64,000 nucleotides of DNA from a virus (Duplodnaviria; Caudoviricetes), in the IMG/VR virus record IMGVR_UViG_3300027705_000005, positions 36,536 through 100,535 of that record; one strand, 5' to 3'. Shown here piece after piece: positions 12,773-40,100 of the stretch (positions are counted from its first letter, which is position 1; each line of letters opens with the position of its first letter). A program made the position numbers and the translations under genes. Below the pieces are notes generated by a model. The model was not told the DNA's origin. It saw only the letters and a program-made list of their open reading frames with translations, and ran no database searches.

Positions 12773-12915
12773 AAGATAACAAACTAAAACATAAAAATAA
12801 GACCAGGATGATGAATCCTAATGGTGGATACAAAAGACAACAGGAAGAACATAAATTAGATAAACATAAAGAAAAGTATAAATTTAATAAAAATAAAATA
12901 GATGAAGAAGAATAA
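12769..12915 (+). CDS. Small basic/charged protein (48 aa)
   Basis: MKDNKLKHKNKTRMMNPNGGYKRQQEEH...DEEE*; overlaps both neighbours. Confidence 0.5.
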   Translation: MKDNKLKHKNKTRMMNPNGGYKRQQEEHKLDKHKEKYKFNKNKIDEEE

Positions 12916-13612
12916 TCTCCTACATGTATCTGACACCCATGCCCAAGAATTATCATTAATTATTCCAGATAATATAGATATTATATGTCATACGGGAGAT
13001 GAAAGTAATTATTGGCAAGTAGCATTAAATGAAAATGAATTTTTTAATTTTATAGATTGGTATTCTAAACTTAATATAAAACATAAATTATTTATTCCAG
13101 GTAATCATTCTTCTTATGTTTATAAATATGAAAAAGAAGCAAGAAGAATTTGTAAAGAAAATAATATTATCTTTTTACATAAAGAGGAAATTACAATAAA
13201 TGGATTAAAATATTATGGTGATGCAACTACTCCTACTTTTGGAGAATGGTTTTATATGTGTAATAGAGGAACAATAGTAAGACATTGGGAACAAATACCT
13301 GATGATACAAATGTACTACTAGTACATGGTCCTGCTAAGAATACATTAGATCTTTCTTTTGATAGAATGAATAACTTAGAATTTTGTGGTTGTAGTGCTT
13401 TAGCTAAAAGAATTAATAATCTTAAAGATATAAAATTAGTGTTAAATGGTCATATTCATAACATGAGATCTTGTAATAATCAAGGAGTATTATATAGAAA
13501 TGGAGTAATATATTCTAATGCTAGTTGTGTTACAGATGGTATAATAGAAAGTGGAGTTACTAGTCATGGTAATTTATTTGAAATTAATAATAAAGAAATA
13601 AAAATAATATGA
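12902..13612 (+). CDS. Calcineurin-like metallophosphoesterase (MPPED-like)
   Basis: SDTH, HTGD, PGNH, VHGP, GHIH motifs. Confidence 0.9.
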   Translation: MKKNNLLHVSDTHAQELSLIIPDNIDIICHTGDESNYWQVALNENEFFNFIDWYSKLNIKHKLFIPGNHSSYVYKYEKEARRICKENNIIFLHKEEITINGLKYYGDATTPTFGEWFYMCNRGTIVRHWEQIPDDTNVLLVHGPAKNTLDLSFDRMNNLEFCGCSALAKRINNLKDIKLVLNGHIHNMRSCNNQGVLYRNGVIYSNASCVTDGIIESGVTSHGNLFEINNKEIKII

Positions 13613-14253
13613 AAGTAGAATTATTATCTCATTTTGGAGATGATTTAATGGTTGCTAATTGTGCAAGAGTTAGCTATGGAAAAAGTAAAATTAAATTAGA
13701 TGATAAAGATTCTAAATTAATTAAATATTTAGTTGAACATAAACATACAGCTCCTTTTAGACATCCACAATTACAATTTAGAATAACTTGTCCTATATAT
13801 GTAGAAAGACAATTATTTAAACATCAAGTAGGAATGTCAGCTAATAGTATTAGTGGAAGATATGTTGATTTTAGTGATAGTTATACTACTATTTCAGAAT
13901 GGAGAAAACAATCCATAAATAGTAAACAAGGAAGTGATGGAGTATTAAATCCTTTTGAACAAGATATGGCTAATAAAATACAAGAGGATGTAATTAATTA
14001 TTGTAAATTTAGATATGATCAATTAATAGAACTTGATGTATCTAAAGAACAAGCTAGATCTGTTTTACCTTTAAACCTAAATACAACATTTATATGGACT
14101 GGGAGTATTTTATCTTTTATTCATTTGTTTAATTTAAGATTAAAACCAGATGCTCAAGCAGAGACAAGAAATGTTGCAATGTTAATGTTAGATTGTATTA
14201 AGTCCATTGAAGGAAATTCATTTAAAAATACATTAAAAGCTTTTGGAATATGA
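13609..14253 (+). CDS. thyX: Flavin-dependent thymidylate synthase
   Basis: ARVSY, HTAPFRH, RQLFKHQVGMSANSISGRY, KEQARSVLP, LRL...AQAET. Confidence 0.93.
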   Translation: MKVELLSHFGDDLMVANCARVSYGKSKIKLDDKDSKLIKYLVEHKHTAPFRHPQLQFRITCPIYVERQLFKHQVGMSANSISGRYVDFSDSYTTISEWRKQSINSKQGSDGVLNPFEQDMANKIQEDVINYCKFRYDQLIELDVSKEQARSVLPLNLNTTFIWTGSILSFIHLFNLRLKPDAQAETRNVAMLMLDCIKSIEGNSFKNTLKAFGI

Positions 14254-14477
14254 ATAATAGAAGTTTAAGCAGAGATGCAGATAATATTAAATCTAGTGTT
14301 GAAGATGTTATAGATAATTTAATATCTGAAATAGAAGATTTAGAAGAACAAGTTAGAAAACTAACAGATGAAATTGAAGAATCAGATAATCAAATAAATA
14401 GATTAGAAGATAAAGTTTTAGAATTACAAGAAGAAATAGATCAAAATTATTCAGATAATTATAGAAGAAATGATTAA
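14250..14477 (+). CDS. Acidic coiled-coil protein
   Basis: Heptad-rich 75 aa, coupled to thyX and to the aaRS-like gene. Confidence 0.65.
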   Translation: MNNRSLSRDADNIKSSVEDVIDNLISEIEDLEEQVRKLTDEIEESDNQINRLEDKVLELQEEIDQNYSDNYRRND

Positions 14478-15030
14478 TTATAAAATTATTAATGATTCAA
14501 TTGCATATTATAATAATTGGGGATTTGAAAGAATAGAAGTTCCTTGGACAGTATCTGAATATGTTGAAAATTTAACTAAACCTAAAGAGGCAGTAAGTTG
14601 TAAATTACAATATAATGATAAATGTTTAGTTGGATCTGGAGAACAATCTTTCTTATATTTGTATCTTAAAGAGTTTTTACCTAAAGGTCAATACCAAGCG
14701 GTTACTCCTTGTTTTAGATTTGAAAATTATGATTACCTTCATAATAAATACTTTATTAAAAATGAGTTAATTAAAACAGATATAGTTAATCATAATGAAT
14801 TAGTACATATTGTAGATCATTGCTTAAAATTCTTTAGAAATTATTTACCAGATTGTGTATCTATAGTTACAGAACAAGGATTTGATATTGAATGGAATGG
14901 TTATGAACTTGGTAGTTATGGTATAAGGAAGAATGAATTTCTTGAATACATTTATGCAACTGGTGTAGCAGAACCAAGATTAAGTAAATTAATAAATATA
15001 AAGAATGGGATATCACATAAAGAAGATTGA
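14470..15030 (+). CDS. Stand-alone class II aminoacyl-tRNA synthetase-like catalytic domain
   Basis: Motif 1 GFERIEVPW, GSGEQ, motif 2 PCFRFE...H..YF.K.EL, ELGSYG, motif 3 TGVAEPRL; no anticodon-binding domain. Confidence 0.78.
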   Translation: MINYKIINDSIAYYNNWGFERIEVPWTVSEYVENLTKPKEAVSCKLQYNDKCLVGSGEQSFLYLYLKEFLPKGQYQAVTPCFRFENYDYLHNKYFIKNELIKTDIVNHNELVHIVDHCLKFFRNYLPDCVSIVTEQGFDIEWNGYELGSYGIRKNEFLEYIYATGVAEPRLSKLINIKNGISHKED

Positions 15031-15250
15031 GAAAGGAGAGTACGGCACATTCTCTAAGATTAAAGAAGAATTTGAAGAGTTTGAAGATGCTGTTAATCAA
15101 CAAGATGCTATTCTACAACTTATAGAACTTAGTGATTTAATTGGAGCAATTGAAGAATATATAAGACCTCAAGGATTTATAATAAAAGATTTAATTGACT
15201 TCTCTGATAAAACTAAATCTGCTTTTGTAGATGGAAGTAGAACAAAATAA
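15005..15250 (+). CDS. Small MazG/HisE-like NTP pyrophosphohydrolase
   Basis: KIKEEFEEF...IELSDLIGAI. Confidence 0.7.
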   Translation: MGYHIKKIEKGEYGTFSKIKEEFEEFEDAVNQQDAILQLIELSDLIGAIEEYIRPQGFIIKDLIDFSDKTKSAFVDGSRTK

Positions 15251-15259
15251 ACAAAAAAT

Positions 15260-15790
15260 ATGGATTTAACAAAAGTAACAAATTTAGAAGAAAGTAAATA
15301 TCTTTCTGAAATGACATTTCCATGTGCAATGGATGCTAAAGCTGGATATTGGATAAATGCATCTAACGGAGAATATGAATTTATAAATTCAGAAGAAGGT
15401 GAAACTGTTCACAAGGAAGGTAGTCTTTGTTGGAGAGATATATCTGACACATATCCTGCATATTATTATAACAAAATATCCAAAGAACCATTAATTAAAT
15501 ATACTAAATCAATTAGATATGGTTATTTATCTAAGAATTTTAATGTTGGAGAAATATATGCTAAATGTTTAGAATCAACCCCAACTAAAACTAAAAAATC
15601 TAAATATATAACGCAAGAATCATACACAATAGATCATCTAACAGTAGAAATATTTAGAGATAACATTCAACCTCTTAGCACACCAAGAATTGAAATTTAT
15701 AAAGATTGGAAATTAATAATTAAAGGAGGAATTATTAGAGATAATGAAGAATGGGGATATGTATTTCAAGAAGATATTCCATTTTTTTAA
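15260..15790 (+). CDS. Hypothetical protein
   Basis: 176-aa ORF. Confidence 0.65.
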   Translation: MDLTKVTNLEESKYLSEMTFPCAMDAKAGYWINASNGEYEFINSEEGETVHKEGSLCWRDISDTYPAYYYNKISKEPLIKYTKSIRYGYLSKNFNVGEIYAKCLESTPTKTKKSKYITQESYTIDHLTVEIFRDNIQPLSTPRIEIYKDWKLIIKGGIIRDNEEWGYVFQEDIPFF

Positions 15791-15853
15791 TATAAAAAAT
15801 AGATAAAATAATATTTTTTAGCAATATTGCAATTACCATGAAAAATAAAGAAA

Positions 15854-16111
15854 ATGGTAACAAGTTTTAACAGAAAGGATCTAGTGTCTTTTGGAAATTA
15901 TTTATTAAGTGAAGAAAGAAGAGAATTATTTAAACAACATCCTGATCTTGGTGAAAATCAATTAGAGGAGAGACTGGCTAATGTTCATCATGCAGATTTT
16001 TCCAATTGGATGTATAAAGTAACAAAAGGAAATACTGATTATTTATTTGAAGATATTAAATATCCTGTATCTACATTTGGTGAAATAATTAAAATAGAAG
16101 TAATCAAATGA
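15854..16111 (+). CDS. Hypothetical protein
   Basis: 85 aa; FN.KDLVSFGNYLLSEER...VHHADFSNW. Confidence 0.65.
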   Translation: MVTSFNRKDLVSFGNYLLSEERRELFKQHPDLGENQLEERLANVHHADFSNWMYKVTKGNTDYLFEDIKYPVSTFGEIIKIEVIK

Positions 16112-16338
16112 CAGTTTATTATGTAATTAAAAAATGTCCTGGAGATATTTATTTTACAGGAGATAATTGGGATTTTGATTTTTGGAATGCTGAAAGATAC
16201 AATTCTTATGATAATGCACAAAGAGTTGTAACTAAAGGATTATATCCAGAAAATACATATGAAACAAATATTTTTCAACAAAAACTAACATTTAGATTAG
16301 CAGTTGAAATAAAGAAAATCTATTCTAACTTATGTTAG
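16108..16338 (+). CDS. Hypothetical protein
   Basis: 76-aa coupled ORF. Confidence 0.6.
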   Translation: MTVYYVIKKCPGDIYFTGDNWDFDFWNAERYNSYDNAQRVVTKGLYPENTYETNIFQQKLTFRLAVEIKKIYSNLC

Positions 16339-16691
16339 TTAAGATTGGAACTAGTAGAATTGTATTTTTAATTAATAAATATGCTATAAAAATAGCAAAT
16401 TTCAGAAATGGTCAACAATTATTTATTTATGGTTGTTATGGAAATATTTCAGAAAGAAAATATTATAAACAACATAGTAAAGTAGATTATAATGACAATA
16501 TGGTAGAATATATAGCACCATCTTTATTTTGTTCTTGGTTTGGATTAATACAAATTCAAATAAGAGCAGAACCATTAACAAGAAAAATGAGTAATAAAGA
16601 ATTTAACTTCTTCAGAAATTTAACTACTGATAATAAAGAAGAAAATTTTGGAATAATTAACAATAAAATTGTTTGTATAGATTATGTATAA
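16332..16691 (+). CDS. Minimal protein-kinase-like protein
   Basis: GTSRIV...AIK, N..E, DNKEENFG (catalytic-loop-like), IDY (DFG-like). Confidence 0.6.
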   Translation: MLVKIGTSRIVFLINKYAIKIANFRNGQQLFIYGCYGNISERKYYKQHSKVDYNDNMVEYIAPSLFCSWFGLIQIQIRAEPLTRKMSNKEFNFFRNLTTDNKEENFGIINNKIVCIDYV

Positions 16692-16695
16692 TTAT

Positions 16696-16730
16696 AAAAA
16701 GGAAAGTAAATAAATTTACTTTCCTTTTTT
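16696..16730. terminator. Bidirectional terminator between the convergent genome arms
   Basis: AAAAAGGAAAGTAAAT-aa-ATTTACTTTCCTTTTT inverted repeat with A/T tails at the strand switch. Confidence 0.9.
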
Positions 16731-24469: not shown

Positions 24470-25146
24470 ACTTCTTTCCAGATTTTATTATTTTTGATTT
24501 TATAAATTGTCATTTTAGCTACTCCATATATAGAAGATAAATTAACTACAGTATCGTTTGATTTTCTTATAGTTTTAACTATCTCCCAGTTTAATTTAGC
24601 TGAAGGATTGTTTTCACCCAACACTTTATTAGAAAGATTCTTACTTCTTTTTAAAGCAGATTCTTTTAATTTTTGTTTATGCTCTTCTGAAAAAACAATT
24701 CCTTTTTTAGCTTTAGACATTTTTTCTTTAGTCTCTTTAGATTTAGGTTGCGGTTTTCCTAATTTCGATTTGCTTAATAATTGTCTTGTTTCTTCTGAAA
24801 TAATTCTACCCATAAGAGCTTTAGAAATCTTTTTTCTTGTAGATTTTTTAGGGACTCTTCCTTTACTACTATAAGCAAAAGGACTTAGATTTACTGTATT
24901 TTTTGTATTATCAATAAACCATTGTTCAAGTTTAATTAAATATTCTGAAGGACAAGTTGCTACAATTTTATATAAAAAAACATCAACCCCATATTTATTA
25001 TAAGCTCTTTGTAATCTTGAATTAGGATGTGCATTTCTTTTTAGACAATTAAAATGTTCTCTAATTCTTTTCTTTAAATTAGATGAACTCCCTACATAAT
25101 TTTTATTATTGTAGCTGATTATATACACTCCTGAATTTAGTTGCAT
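24466..25146 (-). CDS. GIY-YIG homing endonuclease with NUMOD3 repeats
   Basis: SGVYIISYNNKNYVGSS...R..EH; EYLIKLEQWFID; SEETRQLLS, SKETKEKMS, SEEHKQKL; GENNPSAKL. Confidence 0.9.
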   Translation of the reverse strand: MQLNSGVYIISYNNKNYVGSSSNLKKRIREHFNCLKRNAHPNSRLQRAYNKYGVDVFLYKIVATCPSEYLIKLEQWFIDNTKNTVNLSPFAYSSKGRVPKKSTRKKISKALMGRIISEETRQLLSKSKLGKPQPKSKETKEKMSKAKKGIVFSEEHKQKLKESALKRSKNLSNKVLGENNPSAKLNWEIVKTIRKSNDTVVNLSSIYGVAKMTIYKIKNNKIWKEV

Positions 25147-28100
25147 TTTTTATCTATTACTTTTTCTTGTTTTAATATTTTTTCAACTTGTTCAAAGTCT
25201 TGCAAATATACATCTAAAAACTCAGAAAACATAAAAGCAGCTTGTTGTTTTTGTTGTGGGGTTATTTGATTATTATTAAGTAATACTTCAGCATTAGCCA
25301 ATAAAGCATTTAATACTGTATTTTGCTTAACTCCAAATATATTAGCAATTAATTCTACAAGTTTATCTAAAATAGATTTGTTTCCTGTATATGGAATCTC
25401 TGCAATAGCATTTCTAAATTCTTCATTAGTAAAAGCGTAACTTATAATTTCATGTATAGAATCTGTTCTATACCCTTCTAGAGGATTTACACTTCTCGCA
25501 TATCTTGTTCTATTATTCCAATACTTATCAGAAGCTTCTTTTAATACTTTTCTAATGTTTTCAAGCTCGTTTAATGCTAATGATTCTTTTTCAGAAAGAC
25601 CTTTAGTATTAGTTTCAAAATAAGTTATTTTTCTAAAAGTAGCTGCATGAAGTAATTCATGCATTAACAATTCCTCTAAAGGAATATTTTTTTCACTTTT
25701 ATTTATTCTTATTGTATTATACTTATCTGAATAAACAGCACCAGAATTTGCTAAAATGAATTTATCTACATATTCTATTTTAATATTTTTTATTAGAGGT
25801 CTTATTTTTTCTAATAGTATTTTATTTGATTCTGATAAATTAATTTTATTTAATACTTCTTCCAAATTTGTAATAGAAGGTTTAGTATATTCAGAAACAT
25901 TAAATTTATTACCTATTGATAATTTGTTAAGTTTATCTTTTAATTCTGACAATTCTATATTAATAGAACCATCAAAATTATTTGTTCTAATATTTTGTAA
26001 TTCTTTAGTAATAATTAATTCATCTTTAATATAAAAATCGTCATCTATTGTATTATCAGACTTAACGAAAGCCAATTTTTTATTAAACCCTAAAGCTTCA
26101 TATACAGAATTAGCTAATTCGGGATTAGATTCAAATACAAAATCTATACCATCTGTTATTGTTTCATTTACTTTAATAGATTCAGATGTATTATTAAAAT
26201 CTAATTCTGTTTGTTCTGGAGTATTATTTTGTTGTACATAATAACCTGGTTTACTTTCAATTTGAGCAGAATTAAATATAGTTAATTTATCTGTAGGTCT
26301 TGTATAAGATGTATATAACATTCTAAATGCTTCTATTTGATCCCATTTATTATATGATACAGGATATACATAAGTATTTTTTAATGTTTGCCCTTGTATC
26401 TTATGTGCAGTCATAGCATAAGCATATTCAATAGGAATTATAACTTTATATTTACCATATTCAGCAGCCAACTCTTTATATTTAGGAGTTTTTGTTTCAC
26501 CATTTCTTTTCATTTCTCCAATAGCAGATCCAATAGAATGTAACTTAGCTTGTAGAATTTTATCTGCATTACTACCTCTAATTACCAATGGTATTCTTGC
26601 TGAAGCATCTTTACCTTGTTCATCAATATATGTAATATCTGACATTAAAACCTCTATATTTCCAATTGTTGTTTCACTTGGTTTAGAATTAATTGTTACA
26701 ATAGCACTATTGTTAATTTTGGTATCAAATCTATCTGCATATTTTTTATAAAACATTACTTTTTCATCTTTAACCAAAACATCATTTCCTTGCACAACAC
26801 TATTTCTAATAGTTTTATTAAAATCTTTGACTTCTTCATTAGTTCCAACAACTACAATAGTAGATAATGGATCTTTTTTAAAGTCTTTTATTGCTTCATT
26901 AATAAAATTATCTTTATTATTATCAAATCTAACTCCTATTTGTGTGCTTTGATTAAAATCAGTAAATCTATTAGATGTAATATTACTAAGATCAAATTGT
27001 TTAGTTTTATCATATTTATCTAATTCATTACCTAATATTGTAGCTAACCACAATATTGGATTATCTTTAGCTTGTCTTATAACTTCTGTTAATTCAGATG
27101 ATGTATTATTATCTTCTGTTAATTTAAATATTGTAGAAATACCAGATCCACCAATTGGTTGTATTTGTGCATTATCTCCCATATACAATATTTTAATATT
27201 AGAATACTTGTTTAAATATTGCATTTCATTAGGTCCAATCATTGAACCTTCATCAAATATTAATATTGTTTTTGGAGTATTAAATATTTTTGGATAAACA
27301 TTACTAAATGGATCTTGAATATATTTAATTGTTCCATTTGGTAAATACTCTGGTGTTAATCCAAACATTGAAGCAAAATTATATAATTCTACTTTTTCAA
27401 TCTTCTCTTTTTTAAAGTTCTTAGATAATACACTTAGTGCAGCATCAGATATTGTAGTTGCATAAATACCATATCCTTGTCTTTGAGCTTGTTTTATAAA
27501 CTCAGAAGACACAAATGTTTTACCTGAACCACCTCTTCCTTTTAAAAGAAATTCTTTATTATCAGAAGGTAACCATACATTTAAAGCTTTATCCAAAAAT
27601 TCCTGTTGCCCTGGATTTAAAGTTATATTATTTGATCCTGTCCAATCTGTTCCAAGACTATTGTCAATAGTTTGTTTGTTCTCAACAAATCCACTTGTAT
27701 TACCATTATTAAAGTAATCACTGTTTATTAAATTCATACTATTAGATAAAGTTTCAGCTAAGATACTATTATTATTGATAGTAATACCAAAAGTTTCTAA
27801 GAAAGAAGCTATAAGGTCATTAAATGCACTTACTAATCTATCTATGAATCCTTTACTATCAGTAGTATTAGTTATAATATTATTTAACCTTTCCTGGAAT
27901 TTATTATCAGACCAAGCCATAGTTATAAACTCATTATTGTTTAATAAACCATAATACTTAGCTTTCATCTCTCCAGTAATCTTACCTTTAATAGCAATGG
28001 ATTTATATAACTCTTTAGTTACTCTTTGGTATGTTTTCTTAGCTTGTTCTGCTTGTCTTTCATTCTTAATTGTGGGAATAATTAACTGCATAAACTCTTT

Positions 28101-31100
28101 AAACTCTTTCTTTTCATCAGCAGTTAAAGCATCAACAGCTTCTAATCTTATATTATGTAATCTTAATATAGCTGTTTTTTGTTTCTCAGTTAACTGATCA
28201 ACATTTAATGCTAACATTCCATCAATTAAAGGATGAAATAACTCATGTATTACTGTAGAAGTAAGATCATCTAATCCAGAAGAAGGATTTAATTTATTCT
28301 GATTATTAGGATTAATCTTAATAAGTTTAGAATTATGATTTACTTCACCTGCTCCATCTATTTTTTCATCTATTACAATCTTATAATCTGAATTATTATA
28401 TAATCCTTTTAATACTTTAGCTACTTCTACATGATTATTAGAACCAGTATTAATAATATTATTGATTACTTCTTGGATAGGCATTTGTTTTGTGCTTAAT
28501 CCAAGCTTATTTATAGCAGATATATCATTAGTAGACTTTTTATCTTTCTTATTATTCTTAGTAACAACTGAAGATAATAAATCTTCCGAAGAGTTCATTT
28601 CTTTAAATTCAAAAGAACCTAATGTTGGTATTGCTTTAAATGTATAATATCCTTTTTTCTCTTTAACTGTTTCATAAAGAACCTTATTTTCTATTTCATT
28701 TCCATATTCATCTTCAGTAACAATAGTATTATAAAAGAATTTAGGTACTTCTTTTTCTTCTCCAAATTCAGTAAATATAGGATTGGCTTTAGTTCTAAAA
28801 TAACTTGTTATTAATCTACTTATCTTACCTATCTTATCACCAACAGAAGTCATTTTAGTATCTTGTGTCAAAGCAATTGCCTTTTCTAATTTAATTGCAT
28901 TACTATCATCAGATTTATTAATTTCTTTTAATCCTTCTAATTGATTTACATAATATTTATGTGACTGTATTAAAGTTAATCCTTTACCAAAAGTCTTCAT
29001 TTTAGCAGCCATATCAGGTTTATTCTGTATGTACTGAGTAATAAACCTTTGGTACTGAATAGATCCATCTATAAGGTCTATATTAGCCTGGTTAAGATGT
29101 GGATTAACTAATTTACCAGTAATAATAGAAGCCGGCATGTACATCATAAAGTTATTAGCTGATTGTACAGGATTAGTAATAAAAGAATAAGTTATTAGAT
29201 CATTACCTAATTGTCTTACTTTTTCATCTTTACTGTTTAACATGTAAACTAAAGATTGAGTATTATTAGCTTCATCCACCCTTTGAGTTTTACCAGCAGC
29301 AAATCTTAATCTTCTATGATTATTGCTTTCATTACCTATTTGATCTACTACAATACCATTAAGTAAATAAGATCCTTCAAACTTAGATTGTTTGTATTCA
29401 GTAACCCTATCAAATATATTGTCTTCTCCTACAAATAATCTTTCTCTTTCTGCATTAACTGTGTTTTCATAAATATCATTATTGGCAAATATAAATGATT
29501 TATAATAATTAATTATTTCTCTGTATGCTTTTTCATCTAAAGGTTTACCTTCATTAGCAAAATAATCAGTAACAGTAGTTAATAAATGTTTATATGGAAA
29601 CATAGTTCCAAATACTTTATTAGAAAACTTAACTCCTTGTTCTATTGCATCACCATATTCTGTATTTTGTAGTTTACTTGTGTTATTCATATTAAACTCA
29701 AAATAACTAGAAGTATAATCTCCTTTAACTATTCTTTCATTATACATTCTTTCTTTAAGAAAAGAGTCAATAAATGATTTACCAATACCTCTGGTAGATG
29801 CATCAATAGATTTTTGAATACCAGCTAATAAACTACCTGCCTCATCTAAAGCAAAGAATCCTACTATGGAATTTAATTGCACTTTATTATAATTTAATAC
29901 TTCTTCTTTAGAAGCTGTATTAAGATTTAAATCTCTAGCTTCTTTTAATGCTGTTACAGAAGGTATTACTAACTGTCTAAGAGCAGCATCTTTATAAGAT
30001 TCATTATCTCCAGGACTTTCTAATTTAGCAGCTTTATATAATTCTTCAATTAATTTATCTTTTAATTTACTATCTTCATGTCTGCTATATCTTTCATTAA
30101 ACTGATTAAATTTTCTATTCTTTTCAGTAATATATCTTTTAATAACAGGTTGTGTCATTAATGCTACAGCATGATCATTAGCTACAGCACCTATTTCTGG
30201 TTTAGAAGATAGAGCTTTATTCTTGCTATCATCTCCCATCATTAATAATGCATTAATTGCATTAAATGTATCTTTATTAAAGTTAAGTGCACCTAATCTA
30301 CCATACTTGGCATTATCTACTGCTTCTGATTGTATGTTTTGAATGTTCTTATGTATTCTTCTGCCACCTCCATTATATTCAGAATAAGCATCTAATCCAA
30401 ATGTATTAAGATTAATTTTCTGACCAGATTTAAATTCAATTGGAATAGATAATCTATTATTTTTATAACCAATATTTAAACCTAAACCTTGTATCATAGC
30501 ATTTAAAACAATAGCATTAGCTTCAATAGCTACACCTTCTTTACCTGATCTGTTCTCTAAATAAGATTCTCTATTATATCTTGGACTTAATAATCCATCA
30601 GGTTGTTTATTTGTTTGAAGAGCTTGATGCTCATTAGCTAAATCTGTCATATCCAATGACTCAGCTATTCTTTCAAACATACCTAAGTTAGTTAAAGCTT
30701 CCCAGTGTATATCAAAATATTCATTCTGTAATGTTTTAATATTTTTTTCAATAACCAGATTATCTATTCTTTCTGTAACAGTATTTTGATATTCTGTATA
30801 TAAAGCTCTCTTTCTTTCAAGTAATGCTTTACCTCCATCATAATCATCTAATGTTGTTTTAGTATCTTTAAATTCATTTAGTTGTTCAATCAGTTCTGTT
30901 CTATCTTTCTCAAAACTCTTAATCTTACCTAAAAGATCTTGAATATTAGCATTATCTTCTTCAGTTAATTCTTCTCCCCAATACTCTTCAATTACAAGTT
31001 CTAATAATCTTATATTATCAGCAACATTATCTAATGACTCTCTTGTTGATAATATTTCTTTCTTATTATCTGTAATACCATACTCATTAATAAATGCACC

Positions 31101-34100
31101 TATCTCTTCTTTGATAGCATCTCTTTGAGTCTTATACTTTTTGTATTCTTCATACTTAATTCTTCCTTTAGCACTAGTTTCTTGGTTATACATTCTTAAT
31201 TTACCATTCTTTTCATCATAAGAATAGTTCCACATATAAGCATAAAGTTTATCAACATCAAAGTCACTACCCATTTGTACTACAATCTCTTGTGGTACAA
31301 CTATAACATTACCCATATATTCAGGTAAGAAACCTAATATTTGAATAGGTAACATAGAGTTAGGACCTTGCCCTGGTATTCTACCACCAATTAATCTCAA
31401 TAGTTCATTAGGTACTCTCTTAGGATCTAAATATGTATTACCTTCTTCATCTGTTGTAGTAAAATCTTTAGGATTAAGTTTATTACCTTTATTATCTAAA
31501 AACTGAAAAGGAACATATACACCAGCAGCATTTATTGCTTTTTCTCCTTTAGTAATAAAAGGTAAATCCTGGCTTAAAGAATGTCCTTTAACTAATACTA
31601 TATCATTCTTTTCTTTTTCAGTTAATCCTTCAATAGTTTTAATACCAGAAGAAGATGTTTGAACATATGAATGTCCATGTACTTTTTGTAATACAATCTT
31701 AGAAGCTATAGAAGCCATTAAGGATTCATATTTATTTGCAGCAGCAGTAAAGAAAGGAGGAACTACAAATTTACCATTTTCATCTAATGATAAATATTCT
31801 AAAGCATTATTGGTAAATCCTCTATCTTGAGCTTCTCTTTTTAAGATCTCTACAACTTTAGACATATCATTAAAGCTACCATCTACTTCATTAATATCAA
31901 ATTTCTTGATAAATTCTGCTTTAGCTTCAGCAAACATTTTCTTTTTAATATCTTCCTTTCTTACTCTTAGGTTAGGATCTAATTCATCAAATCCTTCAAG
32001 TAATAACTTATCCATCTGAGACATAATCCTTATCTGATTTTTAGTTTCATCATAAGGTATTTCTTGTTGGATATAAAATCCAGCTCTATCTAATTCTACT
32101 GGAACTATATTATTTAAACCTTCCTGGCTTACTTTACCATCTTTCCATACATTAGCTATATTAATAGCTCCACTCTTAACAGCAGAACTGTAAGCTACTC
32201 TATTAATAGGAGTTTCTCTTTTAATTCTTAATTCTTTACCATTCTTATCTACTTCTTTAGTAAAGAACATTGCTTCTTTAATCTTATTAATTTCTAAACC
32301 ATTAAATACTTGATGTATAATAGGCATAGAAGAAGATTTAATATATACTTCTGCTTGTAATGGATAGTTCATATTAATGTCATTAAATTTAACATTAGTT
32401 ACCTGAACTGGCTTATGCATACCCATTACAAACTTTAACTCACTATCTGTAAGTTCTGCTTCTTTAGGTACTGGTTCATTATCTTTTAATCTATCTTGTA
32501 TATAAGCTTTCTTTAATAATCTTTCATATAACTCATCATTTAATCTACTTTCTCCTTTAGCAAACATTACATGTAAATGCTCTTCAAAAGAAGTATATTC
32601 TAATGCATCAGCTATATCCATACCTTGATACATCTTGGCTAATCTTGGTATTGCCAGGATAGATTTATTAATACTATTCTTTATATTATTATTAATAGTA
32701 GCAAACTGATATGTTGGTTGTTGTGTATATTCCCATCTTTTAGTGTGTTCATTATACTGTTTAATATGGAAATTTGGTTTAGTACCAGCAGCTAAGTTTT
32801 TGGCATTTCTTTTAATAGTTTCTGTAATAGTAGCTTTAACTACTTGTGAAGTTTGTTCAGCAGTTAGATCATTTATTTTATTTGGTTTACCTTTATAAAA
32901 TGATGCAGGATCTCCTGCAATAGATTGATAAAATCCTAAAGCTATATTCTGAGAATAAGATACTGCTTCTCTAGCAGCTATTTGTAATACTGCTTCATCT
33001 GGAATTATATCTTCTGGTCCTTGAACAAATTGATTAAGTTTAGATAACCATTTGTTATCCATTCTATCTATGTCAATACCATTATCTTCCCAGAATTGTA
33101 ACTTAGCTTCTACTTCTTGATTATACTGATCAGCAGCTAATAAAGTAATAAATCCAAGATCATTTAATGGAATAGCAGAATCTACTACTTCTGAATCTAC
33201 ATCATAGTTATTGCTAATAACTGCCTCTACAAATTCATCAATATTTTTAATATCATTTTGTGAAGCTTTTGTACCTTCTTTAGTTGCAAGAAATAATAAA
33301 TGTGTTAAGTCTGGTTTATTTAAAACATCAGCATATGTTCTTGTAATACTAAATTGTTCAAATCCAACAGCATATCTATTATTATATTCTGCACCTAATC
33401 TAGATAATACTTCTTTTAATGCTTTAGGATTTTCTTGTTGCTCTGGAGTTAATAAACCTTGTAATATTTCTTTAATTTTTGATTTAGCAATCTGAATATT
33501 AGCTGAAGGTAATAAATAAAAGAATTTATATCCATTATCTAATTGTGTATTTCCCGTTTTATTTATTTCATCTTGTTCTCTTAATACATATTGTTTATAT
33601 GCATTAATTCTATTTATTTCTGACTGTACACCATTTACTAAAGCAATAGAATTATTAACTATATTAGATCTTGTAAATTCAATACTGTTTCTTAATTGAC
33701 TTATTTGTACTTGTAAATATCTTGTTTTATCAGAATTAGTAGGAGAACTTGCAGTTCTTTTTAGATTACCATTATTTTGTATTCCAGCTAATTCATTTAA
33801 TTCTATTTCTATCTCACTTAATTTCTTAGCTTCTTCAAAGTCACCAGAATCTTCATTCTTTATTGAATCTATTAATACAGCATTAAAATTAGGATCTCCT
33901 ATAAAAGAAGAGTCTTTACCAAAAGCAGATGTATTTGTATCATCAAGAGTTTTATTTCTGATATTAGCTACAGTAGTTGTTAACTGATCAAATATAGAAT
34001 ATAAGTTCTGCATGTTACCATTAGAACCCATAAAAGAATCAGAACTCTGATTACCTCTAATAGAAGATATAAACCTACCTAAATTAGATAAATAATTACC

Positions 34101-37100
34101 ACCAATAGAGAATGGATTATATAATGAGTAAGGAACATACATATCTCTCTTACCTTCAACTTTCATAGCTGTTCCCTTAGGAATATCCAGATTGTTAAAT
34201 AAAACTCCTATAACACCAGCTTTTGGATCAAATAATTCAGCTATTCCATAACCAAAATAATTCTCAGCTATTTTAGAATAATCTTTAGGATTATCTAAGA
34301 TCCACTGCATATCTTCTTCTTTTACATTAACCTTTAATTGATTAAGTAAAGAAGTTAATCTACCAGCAATTGTATCATCATTATTATTTAATTTATAATC
34401 TAAAGCTATATTCTCATAAGCTGATTTAATATCTGCTATCTTATTAGCATTAATTAAAAACTTATGATCTACATCTCCTATAACTAAATTATTATTTTTG
34501 TCATTAACAATATTAAAGAAATCTGATTCCCAGGTTTCTACCATTACCCTACCACCACTATTTCTATCAGCATCTATAAGATTAGCTGAATAAGTACCAT
34601 CTTTAGTATTCCATAATGCTATTTTAGCTGTAGCTTTATATAATTTAAGAACAGTCATAAACTCATTCTTAGCATTATTATCCCAAGTTATAATGTTATC
34701 AGCTATCTGATTTAACATTAATTTATTAGGATTAGATTTATCTCTTAATACTTTTATTGCTTCATCAAAAGTAAGATTAGGTTTATTAGATAATAATCTT
34801 TTAATTGTAATAAAAGCATTTTCTCCATCTACATATTCTGGTAATCCTAAAGTAGTATATTTAGGTACTATTTCTCTACCTGACTTCTGAACCATTTCAA
34901 TAGTAGATAATTTAGATTTTAATCTAAATGAAGCTCTATCATAATCATTCATTTCATAGATAGACTCATCATATCTTTCTCCTTGATGTCCTTGTTCTCC
35001 AGTAGAATCTATTATTTCTGCATCTTCTTGTTGTTCATTAAAAGTAGTTTTATTATTACTTTTAACCCTTAACCCAGAAGCTTGTAATTTAGAATGTATA
35101 AGATCTTTTATCTGATCTATGTATTGAGGCATATTTTTTAATGTCTCGGTTTGTGCATCTTCAATTAAATCTCCTAAGAAGTATTCTTCTACTTGGTTAA
35201 GTATTTTTTCAATAGATTGATTAGGATCAGCATTAAAGGCTTCTAATGCTATATGTGTACCATAAGTAACTAATTGTTCTTGATGATGCCAAGGAATAGC
35301 ATTACCTGAATCATTACTGACTAAAAATTTAGAAGACAAGGCATTAATATCATCAACATCTATTTTGATAGATTGTAATATATTATTATTATCTGTATTA
35401 GTTTTCTTAGGTGTAAACTTCTTTCTTGGTTTTTCTTCTATAGTACTATCTGGATCAGGAACATTTTTTGTTTGAGTGTTATTTAAAGCAAGTAATTCAT
35501 CATCATATTTAGCATTAATTTTATCTTCTAATTTACTAGTAACTTCTTCTGTTTTATAGGGAATTTTATTATCTATATTTAAATCTTCAAGAGCATCCCC
35601 AGCATTAGTATTACTTTCAGTAAAGACAAAAGATTTATTGCCTGCCCTATATGTAGTAGCTGTAATATCATTTCCGTTATTATCTATATAATACTCTTTT
35701 TTTACGGGAATACTTTTAGCTTTTTTATCTAATTCTGTTTTTAATTTTTCTTGTCTTCTGCTTTCTATATCTTCTACAGTAGAAATATCAGGTTTAACCT
35801 GACTTTCTGTATTTGAAATATTATTTTTAAGTTCAATTAGTTTTTCATTAATTCTTGTTACTGGACTTTTACTACCTTTTTCTTGAGTTGTATGATCTGA
35901 AAATATTAATATTTCTCTTTGTGATAAAGGTTGATTTAATGATACTTTATTAGCGATACTGTTAATAACATTATCAGATACAATACCAGCATCTACAAAA
36001 GCATTATATTGCTCATTAGATATTGGTTCAGATACATTTTCTACAGGTTGATCTTCTACTTCAACAGATTGTGGTTTAACATCAGTAGTTAATTGAGTAT
36101 TGATTTCAAATGTAGCTTGTTCATGAAAAATCCATCTATTTGTATAAGGATCTTTAACATATAATACATCTGTTTCTGTATCTTCAATTATTCTATTTTT
36201 ATTAACTTTAGGTGCTAAACCAATAGTACCATTATTATTAACAATAGTTATCTTAGTATTTTTATCTTTTACATTAAGTCTATAAGAAGTTCTTTGTGCA
36301 TTACCAATATAACTATCTATAATTGCTTTATCGGCATCAGATAATTTACCATCAATTAAATTATCAACAGTAATTAATTTAGTTTCTTGACCTTGTTTTT
36401 TAACAGCTATTTGTCTTTGTTTATTCTTACCAAATCCAACATCTAATTTATTAACTTTATTTTTAATGTCTTGTGCCCAAAAGTCATTCATTTGTGCTAA
36501 AACTTCCTTATCTGTTTTAACATTTTTACTAATATTACCTTCATTTAAAAAATCTTCAAGATATAGATATACTAATTCTTTATCAATTGGTTTTGCAATT
36601 AATTTAACATAAGTGAATTCTGGAGTTTTATTATCAGAACTTTTCATTGGTAATTTAAGAGTAGCTATTTGGTTTTTGTCCTTACCTACCATTACTATTT
36701 CCACATTAGTATCATCAATAAGTTTTTTAGTAGGGATAGGTGGTCCTACTCTTCTTGATACATCACCTGGTTTAACTTCAGTAACCTGACTTGAAGGGTT
36801 TTCAGTGTTTAATATATCTTTTCTAAAATCAAATAATTTAATTAATTGATCAGCAATCTTTTTAAAATCAGATTTTTCTGTACCTTCTTCATCACTTCTA
36901 ATTACTACTCTATTAAATGGTCTTGTATCAAAAGTATCTCCTAAGAATATTTTAATTCTATTTGCTATTTTAGTTTTAGATTCTCCATCCATAATAGCAT
37001 TAACAATCTCTTGTCCTTGTGGAGTAAGTATCATCCATCTATTACCTTCATCAGACTTAGATGGATCTGGAGTAGCAAATAGACCTCTTAAATCAGTATC

Positions 37101-40100
37101 TTCAGCATTTTCTGTAGACAATAAACTTGCTAATGTAGGAACATAAGATTTATTTTCAAATGTATTATCTCCTTCAAATATTATTCTTATTGGAGTATGA
37201 TCTATATTACCTATCTCTCCTTCTGTTTCAAGTGTAACATTAGTTCCAACTACATATTTATGTGATGATATAGGAGTAATTACTCTCTCATCAGATTTAT
37301 TTTTTAATGTACCATCATCAGATATTACATATTCTCTGCCTAATCTACTAACAGAAGCATGAGGATTAGTTAATTTATTCTTCTCTCTAAGTTTCTTTTC
37401 TTCTTCTCTAATATTTTGATTAGGAACTTCTGGTATTACTTCTGGTTCTGTTTCTACAATTGGATCTGTTACCACAGGAGTAGTATCAGTTTCTTCTTCA
37501 CCAAATACATCATTAATATTAACTAAACTAGCATCATCAAATTCTTCTGTTTCATCTTGGATAACTTGATTAGTAGGAGGAATAATATTTTCTTCAATTT
37601 GAATTTCCTTTAACTTTTCTTCTTCAATAATAATTTGAGGAATTTCTTCAATTATATTTTGTTCAGTTATTACAGGTTCAACAATATTGGTTATTGGAAT
37701 TTCAATATTTGGAATTGGAGAATTATCAATTGGAATATCATTTATTAATTCATCAATATATCTAAATTGATTGGTTAATGTAGTTAACTTATTTTGTAAT
37801 TCATCTAATCTTTTCTGTTCTTTATTTTTATTTTCCTCAAGAAATTCAAGATCATTTAAATGATCATATAAATTATTTTCTAATTTATTAAATTCATCAG
37901 TAACTTTATTATAATTTGTTACTTGGCTCTTATCTAGAGACTCATTAAGTAAACCAGATAGATCTTTAGATTTAAGATTATTAAATGATTTTTTAATGCT
38001 ATCAACATAAGATTTAATATATTTTATTGATTGAGATAAAGCATCATTTAATATTTTTATTAATTTATCAATAATAGATATCTTATTACTTATTTTATTT
38101 CTTCTATCAATTAATTTTTGAGTTGTTATTTTAGTAATTAAATTATCATTTAACAAACTATTATAATAATTAACTTGATTATTTAAATCTTTTCTAATAG
38201 TTCTTAATTGATAAGCATATTTCTTAAGTTCTTTTATTGAATCAAACAGTTCATTTAATGTTTTAAACTCAGCTCTAATATTTAATTTTAAATCTTCAGC
38301 TCTATTGATTGTGGATAATCCTTTTTTACTATTCTTTTTAGAATTAGAATTAACTATATTTAATAATGTTTGTATTTGCTTTTGAATTTTTTCTACTTCT
38401 ATTCCACTTAATTTAGTTTTAGAAGTCAATTGAGCAGATAAAGATTTAACAACTTTATTAATATCAGAAATATCAGATTGAACATTATTTTGTTCTTCCT
38501 TTAAAAGATCAATTTTATTCTGAATCAATACAGAAATATCATCATTCAATCTCTTTTGTTCTTGTTTAACAATAGGATCAATATCCCACTCTACTACTGG
38601 ACTTGGTAATGGATTAGAACTTCCTATAGCAGCTCCAATAGGATCTTGTAGATTTAAATAAGCATTATAATTATTTGGCGAACTATAATCTAATGCTCCA
38701 GGTTTTTCAGTCTTTTTAACTTCTGGTTCAGTAACAGTTAATGAATCTATATAAGTATCAAATTCTTCTTTAGTAGCATCTACAAAGATACCATCCATGT
38801 AATACTTCTGAAGTTCTTCAAAAGTTAATACTTTAGTTTTTTCACCAGTATTATAAGTAATTGTAGATGTTGGTTCTACTCCTTCTATTGTAGTTATATG
38901 TGCATAACTTATAGTACCATCTGGTTTACTACCACTAAAATAACCAATACCAGCTCTTGCTCTTTCAATAAAAGGAATAAACTTTTCTCTTAATTTATCT
39001 TGTTCTGCTTTTAAATCTGATTTTTCTTTAGCTGCTCTTATTCTTTCTATTCTATGTAAATTAGCATAGATAGATAACATCCTAACTTGTTCTAAAATGT
39101 CATCTTTACCAGCATCATTAATCCTGGATTTTGAATCTACTGAGTTGGTTATCTTATCTAAATCTTCAATTAACTTTTCTACTTTTTCATCTGTGATATT
39201 ATCTACATTCTTAGCTACAAAGTTATCTACTTTATCTTTCATGCTCCTATATTGAGCACTATTTAAATATTCTCTTTCTGTTAATGCTTCTTCTAATCTA
39301 TCTGTGTGATCTTTTAACTTAACTAATTCATCTGTTAAAGTAGGATCATTAATAAACTCTTTAGCTCTTGCTTGATTTCTTTTATTAGATTCTTCTAAAT
39401 CTGATTTGTCTTTTAATAAATTATCTAATTCTGTTTTCTCAGTAGGTTTAATTGTCTTTAACTTACTAAGTTCATTAATCCTTTCTTGTTTTTCAGTATC
39501 AAATTCTACTACAGGGACACCACCTTTAGTTTTAAGTAACACATCTATGTCACTAGTTATATCAGCATGATTAGGATTAACTGCTTTTTGTGCTGCATTG
39601 TAAGCTTCTATATTCTTAGATATTTTGGCTTTAGTTTCATTAACTTTTATAGTTCTTTTATCTACAGCAGTAGTTAATGTTTTTATATTTTCATTAACAA
39701 AGAATTTTCTTTTTCCTAATTGTGGATCATTATGTCTATTCCATTCATTTTCTATTTCTATTAGCTTAGTAGCTAATGATTGAGCTTTAACTTTAATCTC
39801 TGGAGTAATTTCAGTATCAATTAAATTAGATCCTTGTTTAGTACCATTTGCTATTTCTTCAATAGTAGATCTAAAGTTACTTAATGTACCTTTAGAAAGA
39901 TTATCCATAGCTGCCTTAACAAACATGTTTTCCTCTATTGCTTCTTTAGTTATATCATCTCCTTCAAAAACAGCTTGGTCATATGCTTGTTGAGCATCAA
40001 ATAAATTCTCAAATTTAGTTTTTAATATTTCATTATTATTCTTAACTTGATCTTGTTGGTTTTCATAATTTCCTTTTCTTGTATTAAGAATATCTCTTTT

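Follow-up and report, generated by a model that had tools for sequence, protein, structure and literature searches.

Aminoacyl-tRNA synthetase (aaRS) paralogues with no tRNA function, such as AsnA, EpmA, HisZ, and the ligases that join an amino acid to a carrier protein (aa:CP ligases), have each brought new chemistry. Here, we investigated a candidate for another such paralogue in a 64,000-nucleotide stretch of tailed-phage DNA (IMG/VR record IMGVR_UViG_3300027705_000005, positions 36,536 to 100,535), referred to below as the window. The gene of interest encodes a 186-amino-acid protein resembling the catalytic core of a class II aaRS (positions 14470–15030, + strand), and it overlaps the gene for an 81-aa protein of the MazG/HisE type (positions 15005–15250, + strand). 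We call the two proteins the core and the partner, and the two genes together the module.

The catalytic domain of seryl-tRNA synthetase (SerRS), a class IIa enzyme, is the best structural and sequence-profile match of the core. Both have the TPCFRxE motif, an F-x-K-x-E strand, an E-x-x-S segment, and a G(T/S)GxAxxR motif 3. However, the core has neither the N-terminal coiled-coil arm nor the C-terminal tail of SerRS, its motif 2 loop is shorter, and it spans ~186 rather than ~430 residues. Also unlike SerRS, it has an obligate MazG-like partner and does not match any aaRS equivalog. The aa:CP ligases, such as Bll0957 (PDB 3mey), are likewise arm-less SerRS-like cores, and Mocibob et al. reportedly described them in 2010 as being encoded beside small helical carrier proteins of ~80 aa. 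The partner seen here is instead of the nucleoside triphosphate pyrophosphohydrolase (NTP-PPase) type, with acidic metal-binding motifs and no phosphopantetheinylated carrier, and the core is ~100 residues smaller than those ligases. The aa:CP ligases are zinc-dependent (PMC9437257).

In the HisZ-HisG system, a HisRS-like class II core acts as a subunit of a nucleotide-metabolising complex, and HisE (PRA-PH) is the enzyme that the partner resembles most. HisZ is reported to have no adenylation activity (PMC9437257), whereas the adenylation residues (catalytic Arg, Phe, and Glu) are kept in the core studied here; there is also no HisG at this locus, and the pairing of such a core with a HisE-like protein corresponds to no known histidine-pathway complex. 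AsnA and EpmA (PoxA/GenX) are class II cores without tRNA function, and the acyl group that they activate is passed on to ammonia or to a lysine of a protein, but they are derived from class IIb, are larger, have no MazG partner, and rank below SerRS as structural matches. In phage 2-aminoadenine synthesis, the MazG-type pyrophosphatase MazZ provides the dNMP for PurZ, a ligase that joins an amino acid to a nucleotide. The logic of a phage MazG-type protein working with a ligase is similar, by analogy only: PurZ is an adenylosuccinate-synthetase homologue and not of the class II aaRS fold, neither PurZ nor DatZ is present here, and there is no sign of base replacement.

Structure and conservation of the 186-residue core

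We predicted the structure of the 186-aa protein alone with AlphaFold2, using 127 diverse homologues. The model is a single domain of class II fold with a predicted local distance difference test (pLDDT) score of 96.7 and a pTM of 0.91, and it contains the hallmarks of the superfamily, including the antiparallel β-sheet core with helices on its flanks, motif 1, motif 2 (fRxE), and motif 3 (GxGxGxxR). The protein starts at the motif 1 helix and stops just past motif 3, so that its whole length is core. A Foldseek search with the model returned class II catalytic domains at a probability of 1.0 and TM scores of 0.64–0.71. An exhaustive VIA-align search indicates that the top match is the catalytic domain of human mitochondrial SerRS, with a Z score of 19.4 and a root mean square deviation of 2.5 Å over 182 residues. 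Lower ranks are taken by HisRS-like and HisZ chains (Z 17–18), PylRS (16.7), the aa:CP ligase Bll0957 (16.2), and AsnA and EpmA (13.2–13.5), and more than 45 class II enzymes were matched in total, with Z scores of 13–19. Sequence searches gave a similar picture. The family profile matched SerRS best among PDB sequences (3.9e-7), while a single-sequence search of the same set found no match; similarly, a scan of viral contigs with the single protein returned nothing where the profile scan did. The protein belongs to phrog_4806 (PHROG, E 2.8e-37) and has a weak Pfam match to tRNA-synt_2 (E 0.012).

The signature residues of all three motifs are at least 90% conserved among the 127 homologues: P25 in motif 1, R83 in motif 2 (TPCFRxE), and R170 in motif 3 (TGxAEPR). 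Other positions that are invariant or conserved to the same degree include S56, E58, Q59, T79-P80-C81, H91, F95, K97, E99, D139, E146, S149, R153, and T164. We set these residues against the Escherichia coli SerRS sequence by eye, and the conserved positions fall on TAE, TPCFRSE, the HQFDKVE strand, EISS, and NGSGLAVGR. Specifically, S56-x-E58 lies on TAE, E99 (KxE) on KVE, E146-x-x-S149 on the EISS segment, and T164 on NG(S/T)G. We tentatively give the aligned residues their SerRS roles, namely the serine pocket, metal binding by EISS, and adenine stacking by F95, although the literature searched did not confirm these roles.

No tRNA-binding arm, anticodon domain, or C-terminal tail was found in the 186-aa protein, and there was no Pfam Seryl_tRNA_N match. 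An NCBIfam scan gave no aaRS equivalog, including the curated serS model. Alignments of hidden Markov models show that the motif 2 loop is 7–9 residues shorter than that of SerRS. The initial annotation had called this protein a minimal class II aaRS-like ligase that retains the adenylation-site residues and has no tRNA-binding appendage, and the AlphaFold2 model, the Foldseek and VIA-align matches, and the 127 homologues all bear this description out. Judging from sequence profiles and the predicted fold, we regard it as a SerRS-derived class II adenylation core without tRNA-binding parts.

A longer family member, gp140 of Caulobacter phage CcrPW (locus L005, 2743–3597), carries the core plus an N-terminal extension of ~85 aa that is similar to the C-terminal domain of the RNA polymerase alpha subunit. 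Its Pfam RNA_pol_A_CTD score is 25.9 bits against a cut-off of 23.8, and this was the sole extra-domain match on the longer family members. This domain hints at nucleic-acid proximity for the CcrPW protein.

The conserved pair of core and partner

The partner matches phrog_6408 (PHROG, E 1.4e-27), and its Pfam PRA-PH score of 19.7 bits falls below the cut-off of 21.3. Across its family, PRA-PH is matched by 58 of 72 sequences (E < 0.1, best 1.8e-5) and MazG by 11, while matches to HisE and MazG-like proteins in the PDB are weak (E 0.1–0.7). Residues G14, K18, E21, E22, E25, E41, D44, G47, and T70 are invariant in the 72 homologues. Among these, E21, E22, E25, E41, and D44 form the EExxE...ExxD signature of the all-alpha NTP pyrophosphohydrolases. 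A structure search of the Atlas shows that, outside its own family, the partner is nearest to MazG domains (TM 0.66), and the partner domain is predicted to consist of three helices in a fused model described below, in keeping with the helical bundle of the MazG/HisE superfamily. The 81-aa open reading frame (ORF), described initially from the window alone as MazG/HisE-like, carries this invariant signature, and its Pfam score lies just below the threshold. A PADLOC scan for defence systems gave no match for either module protein.

To examine the neighbourhood, we used a set of 80 viral loci from IMG/VR, retrieved by the aaRS-like profile. In every one of these 80, a MazG-like partner is encoded on the strand of the core gene and no more than 2 kb away from it. 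The two genes are adjacent in 59 loci (partner downstream in 33, upstream in 26), fused in 3, and separated by one or a few genes in 18, and their order is swapped between clades. Using tblastn, we also found the partner directly beside the core gene in phAPEC8, Vibrio phage 2.275.O, Acinetobacter phage AbTZA1, Cronobacter phage CR3, and Caulobacter phage CcrPW, and fused to the core in Microcystis phage MaMV-DC. It adjoins the core gene in four further cultured phages as well, so that it was upstream or fused in 10/10 cultured phages checked. In phage Phab24, it forms the N-terminal part of an upstream ORF that overlaps the core gene. Of the proteins gathered from the large databases, 64 are two-domain fusions, of which 62 run aaRS-MazG and 2 run MazG-aaRS. 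Fused forms dominate in genome bins of the candidate phyla radiation (CPR) and DPANN (9 of 18 genome loci), and they are also present in IMG/VR, in records that bear GVMAG names, and in entries labelled "uncultured virus" or "viral metagenome."

Clustering of all ORFs in the 80 loci revealed no third conserved gene common to more than 10 of them. A homologue of the 75-aa coiled-coil ORF that precedes the core gene in the window (14250–14477, + strand) was found in none of the 80 related loci, including relatives with 56–68% identity, and ThyX, encoded just upstream of it, is present in two. The conserved unit is therefore two genes, core and MazG-like partner, and not four. The coiled-coil ORF adjoins the module, with translational coupling, in this phage alone and does not belong to the conserved unit, and ThyX is a context gene of this phage rather than a conserved partner. 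The initial annotation had treated thyX, the coiled coil, the aaRS-like gene, and the MazG-like gene as one operon, and only the last two hold together as a unit. Random neighbours in homologs would have refuted its reading; for the MazG-like gene they are not random.

Where the partners are separated, the intervening genes are heterogeneous and include an unnamed family of 190–200 aa, an unnamed His/Asp-rich protein, and an ADP-ribosylglycohydrolase. The first of these (HWFGLGFIQ...HNHRYNFTS) has no Pfam match and lies between the module genes at L029 (6527–7099), L037 (6512–7123), and L045 (6515–6745). In the Acinetobacter phages AbTZA1 (L003, 2357–2980) and Phab24 (L108, 4259–4999), the partner is the N-terminal domain of a protein of 207–246 aa, whose C-terminal 125–165 residues match no Pfam family.

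We also modelled a natural fusion, P0158 (pLDDT 96.1, pTM 0.87). SerRS chains align to its residues 1–213, so in this model the first helix of the MazG-like domain takes up the position in which SerRS packs its C-terminal helix following motif 3.

Proposed reaction and rival explanations

We favour the reading that the core and the 81-aa protein are one two-subunit enzyme, which in other lineages is one fused chain. A heteromeric or fused enzyme with a SerRS-type adenylation site and a Mg-NTP site is suggested because catalytic residues are kept in both proteins, fusions exist in both orders, and tRNA-binding elements are absent. More specifically, our tentative proposal is that the module is an adenylate-forming ligase acting on a nucleotide rather than on tRNA. 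The core would bind ATP and a small polar amino acid and make an aminoacyl-adenylate; a serine-like amino acid is the best guess because the positions aligned with the serine-binding residues of SerRS are conserved. The partner would then dock at the position of the SerRS C-terminal helix, bringing a Mg2+/triphosphate-binding site that holds or processes a nucleotide, and we thus propose a (d)NTP or (d)NMP, and not tRNA, as the acceptor or co-substrate. Attachment of the amino acid to such a putative non-tRNA acceptor is plausible. Possible products are an aminoacylated nucleotide, subsequently trimmed to the monophosphate, or a dinucleoside polyphosphate of the Ap4N type, for which the synthesis of Ap4A by SerRS is a precedent. 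It is possible, but on the doubtful side, that a single composite active site is built from the SerRS-derived core together with the HisE-type Mg-NTP site, and with it a new enzyme class of large viruses that makes one of these products. If so, the product might serve as a signal, as a precursor of RNA caps, or as a modification of DNA precursors, or it might be a nucleotide metabolite not seen before, and no smaller natural catalyst of the class II aaRS type would be known than the core.

Several points weigh against a ligase acting on nucleotides. The acceptor, the amino acid, and even catalysis are inferred, and the serine pocket was assigned from the by-eye alignment together with general SerRS literature. 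Three copies of the core in bacterial metagenome-assembled genomes (MAGs) have no MazG partner. Genes for ThyA, ThyX, or dihydrofolate reductase (DHFR) lie within 6 kb of the module in 10/80 loci, a modest enrichment given as raw counts without a background control. Other neighbours point toward tRNA: tRNA genes lie within 6 kb in 24/80 loci (again a raw count with no background control), a few modules sit within tRNA arrays (L052, L054, and L055), the RNA-repair nucleotidyltransferase RlaP is nearby in 6/80 loci as well as in phages CR3 and Vibrio 2.275.O, and a CCA-adding enzyme is encoded 5 kb from the module in phage W70. These neighbours, the SerRS descent, and the complete adenylation site would all suit a minimal SerRS-type core that charges a phage or host tRNA, whether tRNA-Ser, another class II-shaped tRNA, or one with a repaired 3' end. 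The MazG-like subunit would then stand in for structural parts that are gone, or remove an alarmone or a by-product that is a nucleotide. Members of the family are also found in large phages and in the bins of giant viruses and of CPR/DPANN, where tRNAs or aaRS genes are common. However, the core has no N-terminal arm and no anticodon domain, and it has a shortened motif 2 loop, the element with which SerRS touches the acceptor stem. Both subunits are acidic (median isoelectric point (pI) 5.3 for the core family and 5.1 for the partner family), and the only conserved basic residues are those of the active site. It is not obvious what the invariant Mg-NTP-type site of the partner would do in tRNA charging. 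The proximity count is uncontrolled, and tRNA arrays of large phages generally sit among accessory genes. We consider a tRNA-charging enzyme unlikely, though second in rank.

The invariant NTP-PPase signature could also mean that the partner is the working enzyme, a (d)NTP pyrophosphatase serving as a dUTP/dCTP-type house-cleaner that feeds thymidylate synthesis, with the core as a ligand-sensing regulator or scaffold in the way that HisZ serves HisG. Chains of HisZ and of HisRS-like proteins do rank among the best structural matches of the core, and genes for thymidylate synthesis, DHFR, and ribonucleotide reductase recur nearby. Yet HisZ is reported to be inactive in adenylation (PMC9437257), while more than 120 diverse sequences show almost no variation at the arginines of motifs 2 and 3, the stacking Phe, and E-x-x-S of the core, and for this reason we favour catalysis by the core over a HisZ-like role. 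The core is also the larger and better conserved of the pair, and many phages already have separate dUTPases or MazG. This makes the regulator scheme quite improbable. An acceptor role for the 81-aa helical protein, by aminoacylation of the EpmA/EF-P or aa:CP ligase type, would draw on the arm-less SerRS-like architecture of the aa:CP ligases, the Bll0957 match, and the invariant K18, but the partner is similar to MazG and not to acyl carrier protein (ACP). A passive acceptor leaves the invariant EExxE/ExxD unexplained, and the natural fusions would amount to a single-turnover enzyme. The sole Ser at an ACP-like position (ELSD) is Ala in Caulobacter phage CcrPW and Microcystis phage MaMV-DC. 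With this candidate Ser not conserved and the invariant residues acidic or Lys, a phosphopantetheinylated carrier was ruled out, and protein or carrier aminoacylation as a whole seems very unlikely. The initial annotation had offered a further idea, that the adjacent 75-aa coiled coil acts in trans like the tRNA-binding arm of SerRS. Nothing but adjacency and translational coupling in the window speaks for it; the coiled coil is conserved in none of the 80 loci, even among the close relatives, it is strongly acidic (net charge −14, pI 4.1), and the protein that is actually conserved beside the core is the MazG-like one. We rejected this idea and give it almost no credence.

Distribution, naming, and genomic setting

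The core family comprises 1454 clusters at 50% identity (E up to 0.001) and is almost entirely viral. It is present in 276 sequenced phage genomes, including laboratory-tractable phages of E. coli, Acinetobacter, and Caulobacter. Its names in GenBank and PHROG are contradictory (HisRS, SerRS, PheRS, and AspRS), and the MazG-type fold of the neighbouring gene was remarked on by one database submitter. In the literature searched, we found no functional study of the core family or of the core/MazG pair, and the family is not mentioned in a jumbo-phage survey, the phiCbK paper, or a review of aaRS paralogues (PMC9437257). One literature lead, NARP3, proved to be unrelated. The pair appears to be an enzyme of two parts that is widespread, uncharacterised, and wrongly labelled in databases as a tRNA synthetase, and the family is best filed as an aaRS-like paralogue set apart by its obligate NTP-PPase-type partner. 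At the least, this puts right a misannotation that keeps recurring and makes phage-encoded aaRS look more numerous than they are. The strict coupling to a MazG/HisE-type protein, with fusions in both orders, also offers a clean two-component system that can be directly expressed and assayed. Furthermore, a length of ~186 residues is close to that of engineered class II "urzymes" and bears on the minimal size of a functional class II active site.

In two bacterial MAGs, of Pirellulaceae (L094, 1671–3425) and Verrucomicrobiia (L095, 2579–4195), the core gene has no MazG-like neighbour and comes immediately after a conserved gene in which a PRSGTT motif of sulfotransferase type is seen. Cellular genomes may have a partnership of another kind.

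The nucleotide-metabolism genes near the module are directly adjacent to it in several of the 10 loci counted above. The module of Morganella phage Rgz1 lies between frd and td, with nrdA/B beyond; nrd genes surround that of phAPEC8, and NrdC is encoded near that of AbTZA1. A cluster of ThyX, MazG, and "SerRS" genes was reported in Citromicrobium phage RXM (PMC8953757). Large phages have the module among their early or metabolic genes, and its role is probably in the metabolism of nucleotides or precursors.

Genes of the RlaP family (RNA-repair-associated Pol-beta) are found directly or closely downstream of the module in unrelated phages, at L043 (6820–7719), L058 (7136–8038), L004 (445–1566), and L002 (5829–7079). 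Several relatives of this phage encode tRNAs of 84–88 nt whose anticodon is GCA (Cys) and whose discriminator is U73, with the long variable arm of a class II shape, 4–6 kb downstream of the module (L011, 11230–11315; L012, 8329–8414; L018, 9854–9941; and L029, 12194–12277). tRNA-Cys is the isotype found at the largest number of module loci, at 12 of the 24 tRNA-bearing viral loci, several of which are near-duplicates. ARAGORN also identified tRNAs with a CTA anticodon ("tRNA-Pyl," amber suppressor) near the module on two related viral contigs (L044, 11013–11087, and L045, 214–289), which suggests TAG recoding in those two phages.

The window itself is low in GC (~26%), reads cleanly under translation table 11, and comes from a large phage assembled as a 100.5-kb contig. 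The closest database phages are uncultured, with genomes of roughly 635 kb, and their copy of the 186-aa protein is ~53% identical. The + strand genes at 12902–16691 form a tightly packed block in the order metallophosphoesterase, ThyX, 75-aa coiled coil, 186-aa ORF, 81-aa ORF, and four small unknown ORFs. The flavin-dependent thymidylate synthase homologue ThyX (13609–14253, + strand) matches Pfam Thy1 (E 5.8e-42) and ThyX in the PDB (3e-35), and its gene overlaps the coiled-coil ORF by 4 nt. That acidic ORF, which has only generic coiled-coil matches, overlaps the core gene by 8 nt, and the core gene overlaps the partner gene by 26 nt. The layout, coordinates, and overlaps agree exactly with those given initially. 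A terminator-like hairpin at 16696–16729 (+ strand), identified by a consensus scan only, lies where the + and − gene blocks converge and is the probable end of the transcription unit carrying the module.

Two further features of the window were observed. Both arginines of the ThyX signature RHR bind the dUMP phosphate, and at residues ~71–73 the ThyX of the window has K-H-Q in its place, aligned to R78-H79-R80 of Thermotoga maritima ThyX. The downstream SxRY and other conserved arginines are retained, and this variant may have altered substrate binding. Lastly, the − strand at 25137–41633 holds one ORF of 5498 aa within an opposite-strand block, with neighbouring ORFs of 1070–1852 aa. These giant ORFs presumably encode virion or injected proteins of a huge phage.

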